NCBI GenBank assembly: GCA_009693835.1
Contig: SHWM01000001.1
Span: 9,571 to 73,570 of the forward strand
Source of the DNA: Alphaproteobacteria bacterium
GTDB lineage: Bacteria > Pseudomonadota > Alphaproteobacteria > UBA11222
Direction of reading: 5' to 3'
Length of the DNA: 64,000 nucleotides
Shown here piece after piece: positions 5,070-56,984 of the stretch. The position numbers and the translations under genes are program-made. The stretch's first letter is position 1. Each line of letters starts with the position of its first letter. The notes under the pieces are model-generated. The model was given only the letters and a program-made list of their open reading frames with translations, did no database searches and was not told the origin of the DNA.

Positions 5070-5398
5070 TCAGTCACTAACCGTGACGTCAGCCGCTTCC
5101 ATTTAATCGGCTGGATCTAATACGGGTATCAAGGCCAGTAGTGAAGGTTCGCAGGTGACAACAAACCTGCCGGTCTTTGCCACTGGCCTCCCTTTGTCAC
5201 CGGCAGGTTGAGACTGGCTGTACTTGCGCCGTTTCCCTGAAGCAAAATGTTTTTAGGTTGAACCGGGGGTTCAAACAAAAAGCACAAAATTGCTCCAGAC
5301 CCTGTTGCCGGTGCTTCGTCTGACATGATGATGGTTGCGCTCCGGTACATCTGGATATTTCCCAGAGCAGAATGATTTTAGGTTTGTCCATGCCAGAA

Positions 5399-5507
5399 CT
5401 TCAGCCTGTCACCCCGGATTTACTCGCCACGGCGAAGCAGGAGCTCTCGCCGCGCTGGCGCAGCGGGTCGCTCGGGCGTAGCCGGGTTCCGGGGTGACAG
5501 GCCGAAG
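5399..5507. mobile_element. MITE-like element with ~19-bp terminal inverted repeats (CTTCAGCCTGTCACCCCGG ... CCGGGGTGACAGGCCGAAG)
   Basis: Perfect or near-perfect inverted termini are seen directly. A related copy lies at 56744-56873. The element is intergenic between the histone-like gene and the ATPase pseudogene. Confidence 0.6.
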
Positions 5508-5608
5508 ATTTCTCACACTTCAAATTAGGTGAAACAGACTCTAGTGCTGGGATTTCTTCGCTCGCTCCTGCAGGTGTCTGTGACACAGGATGCATCGAAG
5601 AAACGGCC

Positions 5609-8327
5609 TCAGATAGTTTTGCCGCGCCCCAGCCGGGCCACCAGAAGTTTCCGCGCCTCTTCGATCAAAACAATGGATAGGGCAATCGAAGAGGCAAACA
5701 GCCAGTCCAGCGCACTGAGCGGGCGCATATGGAAAATCTGCTGTGCAACCGGCCAGTTTATGATCAACACTAGAAAACCAACCACAGCCGCCAGCGCAGC
5801 CCATAATTTCCAGTTGCTGGTGAAATTGTGCCCAAAGACGGAACCTGTTTCCGAACGGACATTGAAGGCGTTACAGAACTGGAACAGCACAAACGTGGTG
5901 AACGCCAGGGTCGTGGCGCGCTGGTTCCCCCCCCCGTCGCCTCGCCATAAGCCAGCATCAGCAATGTCCCGGCCGCCATGATGGCCCCGTAAAAACCGAT
6001 CACCGCCAGACGCCTCCAAGACAGGACCCGTTCATCCGGATGGCGCGGTGGCGCATCCTGCAGGTTTGGATTGGCGGGATCAAGCCCCAGCGCCATCGCG
6101 GGCGGGCCATCCATGATGATGTTGACGAGCAGAATTTGCAGCGCGGTGAATAGCGCCGGGAGCCCGAGAAGCGGCGCAAGCAACAGTGTGAAAATCGCAC
6201 CCGCATTGGTGGAGACCTGGAAACGCAGAAATTTGACAATATTGTCGTAGATGCGCCGCCCTTCGATCACGGCGTCCACAATGGTGGCGAAATTATCATT
6301 GGTCAGCACCATATTTGCCGCCTCCTTGGCGACATCGGTGCCTGTGATACCCATGGCGATGCCAATATCTGCGGCCTTGAGCGAGGGCGCGTCATTGACG
6401 CCATCACCCGTCATCGCCACGACGTGGTTATTACGTTTCAGGGCTTGCACAATCTTAACCTTGGCTCCGGCGCCACCCGGGCAAAAATTCCAACCTGCTC
6501 CACACGCTCGGCCAAATGCTCCAGGCTCATGCTTTCCAGCTCCGCGCCGGTCAGGATATCACCTTCTATACCCAGTTCGGCGGCAACAGCCGCGGCAGTC
6601 AGCTTGTGATCGCCGGTAATCATCTTCACCTGAACGCCCGCGCGATGGCATAGGGCGATCGCCTCGCGGGCTTCCTTGCGCGGCGGGTCCATCAGGCCAA
6701 CGATGCCCAGAAAAGTCAGTCCCTGCACCAGCGCAACGTGATCGCCACACATATCAAATTCTTCCAGGGGCACGTCACGGCTGGCCACCGCCAGAACGCG
6801 CGAAGCCTGGGCCGCCATGCGTTCCACTTCCGTCATGATGGCTTGAGGAGCCAGCGCCGCGACGCCGTTGTTGGTCAGGGCCATACTGCACAGCGGAAGC
6901 AGGACCTCTGGCGCGCCCTTCACGTACAGCCGCACCACATTCCCCTGACGGTGAAAGGTCGCCATGAATTTGTGTGTGGAATCAAAAGGAATCTCGGCGG
7001 TACGGGGGAGCTGTACGTGCAGTTCCATGCAATTGACGCCACCCTTGGCAGCGATTACCAGCAGTGCGCCCTCCATCGGGTCGCCGGACACCTTGCCATC
7101 CGTTACGGCGCAATCCGTGCACAGCGCTGCCGGCTTCAGCAGCGCCATAAGGTCGGGCAGGGGGCCGCCGTCATCAGTGATGATCGTTCCCGCCATTTCA
7201 TAACCGACACCGCTTACGGAAAAGCGGCGGCCGAGAAAATGGAAGGATCGCACCATCATCTGGTTCAGCGTCAGTGTGCCGGTTTTGTCGGAACATATTA
7301 CCGTCGTACAGCCCAGGGTTTCTACCGAGGCAAGCTGCTTCACGATTGCCTGACGGCGCGCCATAAAATGCATGCCCATTGCCAGCGTAACCGTTACCAC
7401 CGCAGGCAGCCCCTCGGGAATGGCCGCCACCGCCAGCGCCACCGCCGTCAGCAGCGTGTCCATCAAGGGTTCGCCCCGCGCCAGCCCCCACACGAGAAGC
7501 AGAACTGCGACTGCACCCGCCAGTAACGCCAGCCGCCTTCCCACCGAGTCCAGCTGCACCTGCAGGGGCGTCATTTCGGTTTCGGCCGACGCCATCATCT
7601 GTGCGATATGGCCGGTCTGTGTTTGCATGCCAGTGGCAATGACCACGCATTCGCCGCGCCCGCGGGTAATTCAGGTGTTCATGAAAGCCATATTGGCGCG
7701 CTCGGCCAGAGGGATTTTGACGTCGCAGACCATTTCGGCGGTCTTGGTGACCGGAACGGATTCACCGGTAAAGAGCGATTCGTCGATTTCCAGTGTTGTC
7801 GCCTGTACCAGACGGCCATCGGCGGGAACGCGGCTTCCCGCGTCCAGCAGAACGATGTCGCCCGGCACCAGTTCGTCTGCGGGGATCTCCATGGCGACGC
7901 CGCCGCGCCGCACCCGGCAGGAGGTGGCGAGCATTTTCTTCAAAACGGAAAGGCTTTGTTCGGCGCGCTGCTCCTGTTGAAAGCCAAGAAACGCATTCAG
8001 CAGGATGACAAACAGAATGACCAGGGCGTCGGTAAAGTCGCCCACAATGCCGGCCAGCACGGCGGCAAACATCAGCACAACGATCAGATAGCTTTTGAAC
8101 TGGTCGACAAACAGCAGCCAGCTTGCCCTGCGTGGTTTTTCGGTCAACCGGTTCCAGCCAAACTGGTTGAGTCGCTGGGCAGCCTCAAGGCTGTTGAGGC
8201 CCGCTGCGGCGGTCACATCCAATTCACTTAAAATTTCGTTAGCGGGCCGCAAGTGGGCGGCGGCCGACAAGTCCAGGCCGGTTTCCATCTCATCATGGGG
8301 GCGCTGCGATGCGCTCGTTAAATTCAT
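5609..8327 (-). pseudogene. P-type cation-transporting ATPase (type II, Ca/Mg-like) split by at least 3 frameshifts
   Basis: Four consecutive minus-strand ORFs cover one ~900-aa protein. 7671..8327 holds the N-terminal Cation_ATPase_N, TM1-2 and actuator regions. 6438..7646 holds ICSDKTGTLT (phosphorylation site) and MITGDHKLTAAAVA. 5770..6450 holds VAMTGDGVNDAPSLKAADIGIAMG. 5609..6019 holds the C-terminal TM region FTTFVLFQFCNAFNVRSE. Frame switches fall near 7646-7671, 6438-6450 and a C9/G9 homopolymer at 5927-5935. Confidence 0.8.
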
Positions 8328-32903: not shown

Positions 32904-32990
32904 TGGTGCGGTCGAGAAGACTCGAACTTCCACGGGTTTTACCCCACAGCGACCTCAACGCTGCGCGTCTACCAATTCCGCCACGACCGC
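32904..32990 (-). tRNA. tRNA-Leu (anticodon GAG), 87 nt with long variable arm and encoded CCA
   Basis: The reverse complement reads GCGGTCGTGGCGGAATTGGTAGACGCGCAGCGTTGAGGTCGCTGTGGGGTAAAACCCGTGGAAGTTCGAGTCTTCTCGACCGCACCA. It folds as a cloverleaf with anticodon loop TTGAGGT, a GTTCGAGTC T-loop and a 7-bp acceptor stem. Confidence 0.85.
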
Positions 32991-36257: not shown

Positions 36258-38303
<2,046 letters not shown>

Positions 38304-45819: not shown

Positions 45820-46071
45820 ATGTCTGACGGAGGCGTTATCGCAGCCGATCAACTGAAAGCCTTTATTGCCCGTGTCGAGCGCTTGGAGGAAGAAAAGGCC
45901 GCCATTGCGGGCGACATCAAGGAGGTTTATTCCGAGGCCAAGGGCAACGGGTTTGACCCTAAAATCATGCGCCATATTGTGTGCCTGCGGAAAATGGACC
46001 GGGATGATTACAGTGAACAGCAGGCGCTGATAGAGCTCTATGCGGCGGCTGTCGGGTTGCCGGGGACGTGA
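45820..46071 (+). CDS. DUF2312 (UPF0335) domain protein
   Basis: The ORF runs 45802..46071 with a start at MSDGGV. The conserved pattern is LKAFIARVERLEEEKAAIAGDIKEVYSEAKGNGFDPKIMR. Confidence 0.8.
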   Translation: MSDGGVIAADQLKAFIARVERLEEEKAAIAGDIKEVYSEAKGNGFDPKIMRHIVCLRKMDRDDYSEQQALIELYAAAVGLPGT

Positions 46072-48044: not shown

Positions 48045-48135
48045 TCACCCCACCCCAACCCCTCCCCATCAAGGGGAGGGGCTTTCCCTCAGAATTTCAT
48101 CATATTCTTCCCCTCCCCCTCGTGGGGAGGGGGCA
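48045..48135. repeat. GC-rich double-hairpin intergenic repeat (REP-like), copy 2
   Basis: caccccaccccaacccctccccatcaaggggaggggc ... cccctccccctcgtggggagggggc contains two perfect 9-10 bp GC stems. It is homologous to 17561-17660 and lies between the convergent 3' ends of pepF and the MaoC gene. Confidence 0.7.
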
Positions 48136-54609: not shown

Positions 54610-55971
54610 ATGCTGAGTCGTCTGCGCTTTACTAATTTTAAGGCTTGGGGGAAGGTTGACTTGGGGTGTGCGCGGGTGACCGGGTTGTTTGGGACAAATT
54701 CCTCGGGAAAAACCAGCATTCTCCAGTTTCTATTGATGTTGAAACAAACCAAGGAAGCGACCGACCGGGCCATATCTGTGGAGTTGAACGGGGAATATGT
54801 GCAGCTCGGCACGTTCCGTGACACAATCCATCTTCATGACGAAAAAGGTCCATTGAAATTAATGTCGAGTTTGTGCGTGATAATAATCTTGTATTGAACG
54901 ATCCAACGCGTGGGCCAAAAGCGGTCCTCGTTAGCGCGAAGTCATTTACCCTTGAGGCGAATGTCGCATCAGTAAAGGGGGCGCCGCGCACGAAGCTGCT
55001 GAAGTATGGCATTGGTGATTTTAAATTCTCGTTACAGCCGCGAAATGGAGATGATAAGCAGTTCGAGTTGAAGCTGGATGGGGCAAGTCAACAATCAGTT
55101 TTCAAATTTATCCGCACTCAAGGGCGAGCCTGGCAGTTGCCGGGCCCGGTTAAAATTTATGCCTTTCCAGATCAGACTCGCGCCTATTTCCAGAATGCCG
55201 CATTTCTTTCTGATCTTGAGGTAGCGTTCAAGGAAGAGATGGATCGTATTTTCTATCTGGGGCCTCTTCGCGAATATCCGAAGCGGGACTATCTTTGGGC
55301 GCGATCCCGCCCTAGCGATGTAGGCCAACGCGGAGAAAAGGTAATCGACGCCATTCTTGCGGCTACCGGGGCTAAGGAAACTAGGAACCTTAGCCCTAAG
55401 TCACGTCATAAGCCATTTCAGGATATGATTGCCCACTGGCTGCGCGAAATGGGTTTGATACATGAGTTCAAGGTAGCGGAAATCGCGGCGGGCACTAACC
55501 GGTGGCAGGCGCGTGTTCAGACGAAGCCCGGATCTGCGGAGGTGCTGCTCACTGATGTCGGATTTGGTGTTTCACAAGTGCTGCCCGTCATTACTCTACT
55601 CTATTATGTGCCGGAAGGATCAACAGTCATTCTGGAGCAACCAGAGATTCATCCGCATCCGCTGGCTCAGGCTCATCTTGCCGATCTGATTCTAAACGTG
55701 GCGCAGCACAGAAAGATACAGGTAATCTTGGAAAGTCATAGCGAGCACCTGCTCCTCCGGCTGCAGAGACGCATTGCAGAAAAAAGCTATATGCGAGGAC
55801 GTCAAATTATATTTCTGCGAGACTCATCGTGGTGAATCCAGCCTTGTTCCGCTGAACCTTGACATGTTTGGCAGCATAGATAACTGGCCAAAAAACTTCA
55901 TGGGCGATGCCTTTGGTGAAACATTAGCGGCTGAAAAAGCACGCCTCAAGCGGATGCAAGCAAATAGATAA
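54610..55971 (+). pseudogene. DUF3696-type ABC/AAA_21-like ATPase (candidate defence ATPase), interrupted by two homopolymer frameshifts
   Basis: Piece 54610..54897 has the Walker A LFGTNSSGKTSILQ after a LRFTNFKAWG N-terminus. Piece 54873..55835 has Walker B and the H-loop region (VILEQPEIHPHPLAQ; ILESHSEHLL). Piece 55774..55971 continues the DUF3696-like C-terminus (VKLYFCETHRGESSLVPLNLDMFGSIDNWPKNFMGD). The frame changes at an A5 run (~54842-54846) and an A6 run (~55780-55785). GC is about 47% against about 60% for the flanks. Confidence 0.65.
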
Positions 55972-56471
55972 TGCGTTATGTCGTGGATACGAATGTGGCT
56001 ATTGTCGCCAATGGTTATTCGAACCCGTCTAAAGGCGAGAAGCCTCCGTCGATTGAATGCCGTCTCGAAACTTTGAACTTTCTTGAGAGATTGCTAAGCA
56101 ACGGCAAGATCGTCCTTGACGATGGCGGTGCCATTCAGGCGGAGTATCATAGATATCTCAACCCTCGTGGTCAGCCGGGGATGGGTGACCGCTTCTATCA
56201 GGAAGTATTAAACAGTGCTCCTGAGCGCATAGAACGGGTCGACTTGCCAATGAACGCTAACGGCGAATACGAGCACTTTCCAAGTCACATAGACCTTCGG
56301 AGTTTTGATAGGGATGACCGTAAATTCACGGCTTTAAGTTGTAAGGAACGTATCCCAGTCGCAAATGCGACCGATTCAGATTGGCTGAACTATCGTGACA
56401 TTCTTGCACAGCATCATATTTCGGTTAAATTTGTCTGTGGGTGCGATCAGCGAAAGTGGTTTTTAAAATAA
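55971..56471 (+). CDS. Hypothetical 166-aa protein with N-terminal PIN-like motif (MRYVVDTNVAIVANG); candidate nuclease effector partnered with the upstream ATPase
   Basis: Its ATG overlaps the TAA of the ATPase gene (tAATG), which indicates translational coupling. An hhhhDTNV first strand and several downstream acidic residues are compatible with a PIN/PIN-like fold. GC is low. Confidence 0.5.
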   Translation: MRYVVDTNVAIVANGYSNPSKGEKPPSIECRLETLNFLERLLSNGKIVLDDGGAIQAEYHRYLNPRGQPGMGDRFYQEVLNSAPERIERVDLPMNANGEYEHFPSHIDLRSFDRDDRKFTALSCKERIPVANATDSDWLNYRDILAQHHISVKFVCGCDQRKWFLK

Positions 56472-56478
56472 AAAATTA

Positions 56479-56700
56479 TTATAGGGATATGCACCGTTTA
56501 TCGGGCTGTAAGCTTAATGTTGAATGTCCCTCAACCCCCGCCTTCGCCACAAACGTAACCCCCGGCGGCCCGTCAAAATGCGCGTCGCAGGTCAGCAGCT
56601 CGGCGCCGTGTTCCAGGGCCGTGGCGTAGACAATCGCATCGGCAGTGGCGAATTTATGCAGGCGGCAGAGTTCCGCCGCCGCCAGCGAGATTTTGGTGTC
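56479..56700 (-). pseudogene. Truncated VapC-family PIN toxin remnant (C-terminal ~60 aa only)
   Basis: Reverse-strand translation gives LDTKISLAAAELCRLHKFATADAIVYATALEHGAELLTCDAHFDGPPGVTFVAKAG, a typical VapC C-terminus. The N-terminal half is missing and the ORF ends at the CTAG-flanked element at ~56700. Confidence 0.55.
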
Positions 56701-56743
56701 TAGAGCGGTATGATTTTATATTGAATCACCCCGATCACTGTGT

Positions 56744-56873
56744 CACCTGAGCCTGTCCCCGGGCTGGCCAAAGGCCAGTCCCGGGGACACTTGTTGCGGG
56801 GTCCAGGGTACAATACGCAGGCTTACCCTTGTGGCCCTGGACCCCGGAACACAAGCGGGGTGACAGGCTGAAG
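56744..56873. mobile_element. MITE-like element with nested palindromes, related to the 5399-5507 copy
   Basis: Its termini are cacctgagcctgtccccggg ... ccggggtgacaggctgaag, and the right end is near-identical to the right end of the 5.4-kb copy. An internal perfect hairpin gtccccgggctggcc-aaa-ggccagtcccggggac and a second ggggtccaggg/ccctggacccc stem are present. TCTAGA-like sequences lie at 56698 and 56906. Confidence 0.55.
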
Positions 56874-56984
56874 TTCTGGCATTTGCAAACTTAATATCAT
56901 CATGATCTAGACTTCCATCCAGCCAGATTGCGTCATTCAGGGGGCATATCCAGTCCGGTTCATTCGGGCGGCCGCCTGCGGAAA

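Follow-up and report, generated by a model that had tools for sequence, protein, structure and literature searches.

The repeats closest to those described here are the CGTC-tagged repetitive extragenic palindromic (REP) sequences, a class in which many repeats carry the tag TGTC and a CCTC variant also occurs (Di Nocera, De Gregorio & Rocco 2013, BMC Genomics 14:522; PMC3733652). Their units have a stem of 8 to 9 bp, a loop of 4 to 5 nt, and a 3-nt tail, CCA, and stem positions 1 and 2 are "almost invariably" A-T/T-A, with exceptions allowed (PMC3733652). They are multicopy, mainly extragenic, predominant in alphaproteobacteria, and without an associated transposase; most form head-to-head dimers, commonly heterodimers, with spacers of 20 to 100 bp whose ends are often complementary, and some species have the dimers embedded in longer palindromes (PMC3733652). 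The REP doublets forming hairpins (REPINs) described to date are of the GTAG type and are tied to the gene of a REP-associated tyrosine transposase (RAYT), itself flanked by REPs (Bertels & Rainey 2011; PMC3116915, PMC3337134). Here, we analyzed a stretch of 64,000 nucleotides of contig SHWM01000001.1 from an alphaproteobacterium (the window), which contains two small palindromic sequences, copy 1 and copy 2. Both are probably decayed members of one composite palindromic repeat family, built as a REPIN-like heterodimer of TGTC-tagged REPs and belonging to the CGTC/TGTC superfamily. Judged by its sequence, the family appears to be new and, apparently, undescribed within this known class.

The two loci had first been singled out, from the letters of the window alone, as a family resembling miniature inverted-repeat transposable elements (MITEs), with 19-bp terminal inverted repeats (TIRs) at 5399-5507 and 56744-56873. 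The shared 19-mer is real. When CCGGGGTGACAGGCYGAAG was searched with up to 3 mismatches, three matches were found in the window (5399-5417 on the minus strand, 5489-5507 and 56855-56873 on the plus strand) versus 0.03 expected, and none of 100 shuffled sequences reached three. The description of both regions as noncoding and highly structured was also borne out, as folding as single-stranded DNA gave -44.5 kcal/mol for copy 1 (z of -5.45 against shuffles) and -53.7 kcal/mol for copy 2 (z of -7.52). The reverse-complementary arm proposed for the other end was found in copy 1, where 5399-5418 and 5488-5507 (20 nt each, with 69 nt between them) are 95% complementary. It was not found in copy 2, where 56745-56765 is only 76% complementary and belongs to a different, nested hairpin (GCCTGTCCCCGGG...CCCGGGGACA), forming one of its arms. 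The stem of this copy described as perfect over 15 bp (56754-56789) is divided by a one-base bulge into 10+6 bp. Moreover, conservation past the 19-mer is wider than the ~20 bases first noticed, covering ~45 to 50 nt on each side in both copies. The proposed limits were too narrow (the ends, which are approximate, are given in Table 1), and the 19-mer is no terminus: it corresponds to an internal REP tag plus stem, and the true ends lie ~45 nt farther out.

The canonical element consists of two TGTC-tagged REP units, types A and B, arranged head to head around a hairpin-forming spacer in a 91-nt core. Unit A reads TGTC-ACCCCGGA-TTTAT-TCCGGGGT-CCA and unit B reads TGTC-ACCCCGCA-CTTGT-TGCGGGGT-CCA, each with an 8-bp stem and a 5-nt loop; in both types, the stem pair at position 1 is A-T and that at position 2 is C-G. 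The core as a whole is GCC-TGTC-ACCCCGGA-TTTAT-TCCGGGGT-CCA-GG...spacer...CC-TGG-ACCCCGCA-ACAAG-TGCGGGGT-GACA, with the tags outermost, unit A paired with unit B in most copies (a heterodimer), and a spacer of ~30 nt with the pairing ends CCAGG.GCCACAA/TTGTG.CCCTGG. Every one of the 25 aligned copies has TGTC ahead of the stem (invariant columns T58-C61), as do both window copies, and the CCA tail is present in nearly all copies as TCCGGGGT-CCA-GG and, on the opposite strand, as TGCGGGGT-CCA-GG. A longer imperfect palindrome, GAGCGGTATGATTTTAGGTT...AACCTAAAATCATNCCGCTC, encloses this core, resulting in a composite of ~175 to 190 nt. The left outer arm, preceded by TA, is GAGCGGTATGATTTTAGGTTTGTCCATTCCACAATTTCG; the right one is its imperfect reverse complement, C(C/T)GAGTTTGGGGCGATTCAACCTAAAATCAT.C.GCTC, followed by TA. 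The resulting terminal inverted repeats, GAGC.G.ATGATTTTAGGTT and AACCTAAAATCAT.C.GCTC, are imperfect, with an identity of 0.58 to 0.63 among full-length copies. Since the spacing of the outer arms is constant, at 140 to 141 nt in nine full-length copies from seven distinct loci, the composite can be regarded as a discrete unit. The RNAalifold consensus of 25 copies is a single long hairpin of 23 pairs, and individual copies fold with z values from -5.2 to -7.5. Covariation is nearly nil, with double changes in 2 of the 23 pairs: what is conserved is the sequence and not just the pairing, and the covariation analysis is uninformative because the core is almost invariant.

A scan of genome contigs with the 17-mer GGGGTGACAGGCYGAAG gave 114 loci, ~110 of them chance matches; the useful ones, L007, L075, and L112, come from alphaproteobacterial metagenome-assembled genomes (MAGs) and match beyond the 19-mer. 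Metagenomes were scanned with a two-arm pattern, GCCTGTCACCCCG-N50-80-CGGGGTGACA, which retrieved 51 loci with ~28 distinct copies of the REP-dimer family, several per genome, so that the family is dispersed and not a coincidental pair. At least nine copies lie on large contigs of one sample, Ga0209851, and a contig of this sample carries a valyl-tRNA synthetase (ValRS) 85% identical to that of the window. The hosts are alphaproteobacterial MAGs; the lineage of the window's host is uncultured, and its ValRS is 68% identical to that of Parvibaculum. A family profile (nhmmer) built from 12 full-length copies identified two loci in the window, 56673-56931 on the minus strand (E value of 5e-58) and 5354-5425 on the plus strand (E value of 3.7e-18, with a weak match at 5488-5512), placing copies 1 and 2 in opposite orientations; a third match, the fragment 5234-5262, was marginal (E value of 0.67). 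All of the copies examined (27/27) are intergenic, most of them between convergent or tandem gene ends and tens of bases from stop codons, with unrelated flanking genes from site to site and in both orientations. Four independent Logan contigs with 99.96 to 100% identity to the window break off within or at the edge of the elements (two of them at 5419, the others at 56739 and 56882), as expected where de Bruijn assembly meets a multicopy repeat.

The metagenome scan also drew unrelated palindromic families (L127, L142, L147, L150, L168, L124/L170, and L158). These share only the ends GCCTGTCACCCCG...CGGGGTGACA, for example as GTCACCCCGAGCGCAGCGAGGGG types, and some stand in tandem arrays. The tag and stem start TGTCACCCCG thus also serves a number of REP-like families of other bacteria.

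Conservation within the family is unevenly distributed. Among 25 copies, pairwise identity is 0.92 in the REP units, 0.62 in the spacer, 0.46 to 0.48 in the mid arms, 0.38 to 0.40 in the outer arms, and 0.24 to 0.26 in the flanks; among the 11 full-length copies, the corresponding values are 0.95 to 0.97, 0.72, 0.64 to 0.68, 0.58 to 0.63, and 0.23 to 0.24. Leaving aside the 23 bases imposed by the scan pattern, the REP units still show an identity of 0.87 to 0.90. The interior hairpins are thus the most conserved part and the termini the least, the opposite of what a TIR-driven MITE predicts. Many copies hold the core with a scant or no recognizable outer arm. Orthologous sites are retained in diverged relatives (L122/L145 and L126/L163/L164/L136), and in L136 unit A is converted to type B. 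In addition, canonical CGTC units (CGTC-ATTGCGAGCG... and CGTC-ATCGCGAGCG..., with ATTGC/ATCGC stems) were found in two of the related genomes, at L112:448-541 and L117:8712-8892. They share the CCA tail and the spacer GAG(C/T)CAC...GCCT...GTG...CTGGA with the TGTC family, which reinforces its membership in the class.

Copy 1 is degenerate and is composed, in order, of the left outer and mid arm (with an exact match to ATGATTTTAGGTT at 5372), REP unit A with an insertion in its loop, a GACA tag, and a diverged right arm ending ...GACTC next to TA; its left end is preceded by CA instead of the TA of other copies (Table 1). The hairpin is made up of TGTC (5407-5410), ACCCCGGA (5411-5418), the loop bases TTTA (5419-5422) and T (5487), TCCGGGGT (5488-5495), and GACA (5496-5499). 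The last of these follows directly after the 3' stem arm, the copy having no CCA tail, spacer, or unit B. L112 carries a module 86% identical to that of copy 1 in the same loop, within an element that is otherwise complete (L112:221-413). On this basis, the best reading of copy 1 is an L112-like copy from which ~94 nt were lost between the CGGGGT direct repeats of units A and B. An orphan palindrome located ~100 nt upstream resembles a pair of outer arms with no core between them and might represent an "empty" outer module or, alternatively, a derivative formed by deletion. Another match to ATGATTTTAGGTT, at 45956, was rejected as chance; it lies within a short coding open reading frame (ORF), DUF2312/GapR-like by eye.

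Copy 2 is full length and has TA outside both ends (56701-56702 and 56908-56909). A nested hairpin module of 41 nt stands in place of the 5' stem arm of its unit B, and both the "left TIR" and the "15-bp hairpin" of the original prediction fall inside this module. An intergenic hairpin akin to it (37 nt), in a Pararhizobium plasmid, was the sole blastn match in PLSDB. What remains of unit B, CA-CTTGT-TGCGGGGT-CCA, is found at 56788-56805. The spacer hairpin has arms of 17 nt that are 94% complementary (56792-56808/56835-56851), the 3' arm extending into the REP unit at 56838-56868, whose loop and inner stem are an A/B hybrid.

Table 1. Positions of the repeat copies, their parts, and associated features (window coordinates unless a locus is named)
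Feature	Position	Strand	Basis
Copy 1, degenerate element, ~177 nt	5365..5541	+	Profile match, sequence reading
Copy 1, left outer and mid arm GAGCAGAATGATTTTAGGTTTGTCCATGCCAGAACTTCAGCC	5365..5406	+	Aligns with left arms of full-length copies
Copy 1, REP hairpin	5407..5499	+	Sequence reading, alignment
64-nt module in unit A loop, ends CTCGCCACGGCGAAGC...GGCGTAGCCGGG	5423..5486	+	Comparison with L112
Orphan palindrome ATGTTTTTAGGTTGAACC-ggg-GGTTCAAACAAAAAGCA	5247..5284	.	Inverted repeat; ATGATTTTAGGTT match with 1 mismatch; marginal profile match; fold z of -4.0
Copy 2, full-length element, 205 nt	56703..56907	-	Profile E value of 5e-58; aligned with 11 full-length copies
Copy 2, 41-nt nested hairpin module GCC-TGTC-CCCGGGCTGGCC-AAA-GGCCAGTCCCGGG-GA	56747..56787	+	Insertion relative to all other aligned copies
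Copy 2, rest of unit B and spacer	56788..56837	+	Alignment, inverted-repeat search
Copy 2, REP unit, A-like, degenerate, GCC-TGTC-ACCCCGCT-TGTGT-TCCGGGGT-CCA	56838..56868	-	Sequence reading, alignment
P-type cation ATPase pseudogene, at least 4 ORFs	5609..8327	-	Pfam
PIN-domain (VapC-like) remnant, C-terminal third	56485..56703	-	Pfam PIN, E value of 1.4e-7
valS 33-nt modules	15256-15288, 15424-15456; L176:3961-3993	Window gene on -	Orthologue comparison

The REPIN-like dimer would have been dispersed in trans in the form of a single-stranded DNA hairpin, if the analogy holds with the GTAG REPs and REPINs moved by RAYT tyrosine (HUH) transposases; to our knowledge, HUH/RAYT-like enzymes are the only documented precedent for REP mobilization. 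After insertion, selection or repeated conversion may keep the REP hairpins near invariant, the pattern seen in the alignments, as the spacer and outer arms drift and small palindromic modules enter loops and tails. Slippage between the repeated CGGGGT could then remove internal parts, leading to the two aberrant window copies. The effect on the host would be, at most, incidental hairpins at transcript ends, as the location at gene 3' ends suggests, and rearrangement breakpoints.

Several observations weigh against this explanation. No transposase is tied to the family, and mobility is argued by analogy only. As had been stated in the original prediction, no cognate transposase was found in the window by Pfam analysis of ORFs or in gene lists; RAYT was likewise not found by these means, nor among 2,946 ORFs of the retrieved loci by phmmer, a weak search with RayT and IS200 queries. 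No pair of filled and empty sites was found among relatives (L117 and L177) or by protein look-ups, so that neither recent mobility nor the absence of a target-site duplication is shown. At copy 2, an empty site is lacking because the synteny of L117 and L177 ends after the stop codon of the CoA-transferase gene, and look-ups by exact protein around both copies gave records without DNA or Logan contigs stopping in the repeat. The scan pattern demanded both tag and stem arms, which inflates the conservation of those 23 bases; the copy counts come from metagenome loci, and the organism of the window is itself covered over 64 kb only. The second stem pair is C-G, versus the published A-T/T-A. Finally, the long imperfect TIRs, the TA usually present on both sides, and the constant length would also fit a DDE-type MITE.

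Such a MITE would be an internally deleted derivative of a DDE insertion sequence (IS), IS630-like or IS5 with GAG... ends, with imperfect TIRs of ~45 nt, a parent IS acting in trans, and REP hairpins that are mere interior. We consider this reading unlikely, although the family is small, noncoding, and dispersed, has its outer arms 140 to 141 nt apart in nine copies, and begins its long TIRs with GAGC(G/A)G.ATGATTTTAGG. IS630 duplicates TA in CTAG, and TA is found just outside both inferred ends in copy 2, L140, L149, L151/L171, and L128, with about half of the full-length copies having it at both ends. Nevertheless, this TA...TA is part of the palindrome itself (CTAGAGC/GCTCTAG) and gives no evidence of duplication, and several copies have CA, TG, or TC instead. 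Moreover, the termini are the least conserved part (0.38 to 0.63) and the REP units the most (0.87 to 0.97), and in many copies the core persists with an outer arm that is slight or unrecognizable. No full-length IS with matching TIRs was found in the window, in the retrieved loci, or in PLSDB plasmids, where blastn with copy 2 and the canonical copy gave no IS or MITE match. In L112 and L117, the same spacer and tail accompany REP units of another (CGTC) kind, which argues for the REP dimer, rather than the outer TIR, as the heritable scaffold. What stands of the MITE-like family is a dispersed family of small noncoding palindromes; its classic MITE interpretation is not supported, given the internal position of the repeat, the REP architecture, and the lack of a parent IS. 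The alternative named with the original prediction, a short REP rather than a MITE, was half right, since the repeat is a REP, yet a dimer within a longer palindrome.

The copies might instead be structured elements duplicated and selected by the host without being mobile, acting as a transcript 3'-end hairpin (a terminator or mRNA stabilizer) or as a protein-binding site. Their location at gene 3' ends, often between convergent genes, the high stability of the hairpins, the strong conservation of REP hairpins and loops, and the orthologous sites kept across diverged relatives agree with such a role. We nonetheless judge it very unlikely, given the unrelated flanking genes, the occurrence in both orientations, the near absence of covariation (2 of 23 pairs, with sequence and not pairing conserved), the lack of an Rfam match, and the decayed, rearranged window copies with mosaic insertions, which are typical of selfish repeats. 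An RNA function also leaves near-identical 175-nt units at dozens of unrelated loci unexplained. A chance likeness of two GC-rich hairpins, to which the presence of only two loci in the window and the weak left arm of copy 2 might point, has practically no probability and is refuted by the three 19-mer matches against 0.03 expected, by profile E values of 5e-58 and 4e-18, and by the dozens of homologous copies elsewhere. The TGTC-tagged REP dimer of the CGTC/TGTC superfamily is the favored explanation.

The elements also host smaller modules. The module in the unit A loop of copy 1 and L112 has the fixed ends CTCGCCACGGCG.AGC...GGCGTAGCCGGG. Besides this loop module, hairpin modules recur after the CCA tail and within unit B. 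One of them, C(C/T)(A/G)GCCTTCG.CAGAAGGCTG, directly adjoins the CCA tail of the first unit (L112:311-360 and L117:8743-8770) and is found in both a TGTC-type element (L112) and a CGTC-type dimer (L117). This recurrent nesting at one position suggests a mosaic organization like that of bacterial interspersed mosaic elements (BIMEs) and Rhizobium-specific intergenic mosaic elements (RIMEs).

Within the window, the end motifs of the loop module are seen in only three places, the 64-nt loop insertion of copy 1 and two insertions in valS. There, a 33-nt module, CCCGGCTACGCCT(G/A)A(T/C)GGCTACGCCGTGGCGAG on the coding strand, encodes PATP(D/N)GYAVAS and occurs twice in frame. Among 11 orthologues compared, the first module is common only to a 90%-identical one and the second is in the window gene alone; nine other orthologues, Parvibaculum included, have neither. 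The valS module, of which three copies were seen, is not palindromic (fold z of -0.19) and is not a REP unit. It is conceivable, and in our view quite unlikely, that an uncharacterized process places very short modules with precision in the loops and tails of hairpins and, at times, in frame within genes. If these were true insertions by one mechanism, the lineage could expose the missing mobilization machinery of the CGTC-type REPs.

Gene disruption by the repeats had also been proposed, since both copies lie beside degraded genes. The P-type cation ATPase next to copy 1 is in pieces (ORFs 7671-8327, 6438-7646, 5770-6450, and 5609-6019, over which Pfam finds Cation_ATPase_N, E1-E2_ATPase, Cation_ATPase, Hydrolase, and Cation_ATPase_C). 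It is split by its own internal frameshifts, and its 3' end lies ~70 nt outside copy 1; the element is not the cause of the breakage. Two short adjacent ORFs at 20065-21054, with partial Pfam matches (HAD-like, 2-44 of 75; Glyco_trans_1_4, 78-139 of 142), may be further degraded genes, in addition to the four-piece ATPase.

The vapC remnant does abut copy 2, as had been noted. It spans profile positions 73-115 of 120, and its frame opens within CTAG at the very end of the element. Because the far end of copy 2 is just 72 nt from the CoA-transferase stop codon, the missing two-thirds of vapC are not found beyond this copy, so that simple insertion does not explain the remnant, which is a truncation or rearrangement at the element border. 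In two relatives (L117, 78% nucleotide identity; L177, 84.5%), synteny is lost ~10 nt after the CoA-transferase stop, upstream of the position of copy 2, and in L163 and L136 homology is likewise lost at the left end of the element. As seen from these alignments and the truncated vapC, the elements mark rearrangement borders. On the other side of the remnant, the stretch 54873-56471 contains an AAA_21/AAA_15 ATPase that is apparently split (ORFs of 95 and 320 amino acids) and a 166-amino-acid protein with no Pfam match. L117 and L177 carry unrelated genes at this position, and the stretch looks like a small defense-like variable island.

Elsewhere in the window, another family of small repeats, CCCACCCCAA.CCCCTCCCCATCA.G.AGAGGGGCTTT..C...GAATT, with a CCCCTC/GAGGGG hairpin, has two copies (17565-17613 and 48048-48096) that are 82% identical; one directly precedes valS, and the other follows a peptidase M3 gene. 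A 300-nt direct repeat of 74% identity (12866-13165 and 13835-14134) lies in the adjacent ORFs 12794-13741, a sulfotransferase (Sulfotransfer_1), and 13778-14704, which are likely a tandem gene duplication. Ordinary features are a thiamine pyrophosphate (TPP) riboswitch (36315-36416) that precedes thiC (36342-38303) and, on the minus strand, a tRNA-Leu(GAG) gene (32904-32990).

For the window itself, the result is ordinary: two decayed intergenic repeats. The CGTC/TGTC REPs are the main alphaproteobacterial REP class, and a well-delimited, apparently undescribed family is now added to them. Its layered anatomy and its presence in several related uncultured genomes provide a usable case for studying how such repeats are copied and why their hairpins stay conserved long after insertion. 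In practical terms, the elements break short-read assemblies.

Rfam, at both gathering and E-value thresholds, gave no family and only sub-threshold noise of miRNA-like hairpins, a scan of IMG/VR viral contigs with REP unit A gave 0 matches, and a literature search on sequence strings gave primer matches only. Among described systems, MITEs with a TA target include the Correia elements, RUP with IS630-Spn1, and Nezha. The present repeats resemble these in their 100 to 200 bp, noncoding nature, long imperfect TIRs, TA at many ends, folding into one long hairpin, and location at gene ends; they differ in having no parent IS that could be found, no demonstrable TA duplication, and termini less conserved than the interior. 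The BIMEs of Escherichia coli and the RIMEs of Rhizobium are intergenic mosaics of palindromic units and linker modules, which the family resembles by description. Rickettsia palindromic elements and intragenic REPs are short modules placed in frame within essential genes (PMC3733652), as is the 33-nt module found twice in valS, which is related to the loop insertion of copy 1 and is unlike them in being neither palindromic nor a REP unit. The REPINs share with our elements two inverted REPs and a spacer that form a hairpin, a higher conservation of the REPs than of the spacer, and dispersed, extragenic copies that are vertically retained. However, the tag is TGTC and not GTAG, and the two units differ, so that the long hairpin has internal mismatches. 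Compared with the published CGTC REPs, the stems (ACCCCGGA / ACCCCGCA) are new, with A-T at position 1 only, the dimer and an outer palindrome of ~2 x 45 nt form a composite of constant length, extra modules are nested in loops and tails, and the host belongs to an uncultured lineage. In the remaining features, the family agrees with this class: the tag, the 8-bp stem and 5-nt loop, the CCA tail, the head-to-head heterodimer, the complementary spacer ends, the nesting in a longer palindrome, the extragenic location, and the alphaproteobacterial hosts.

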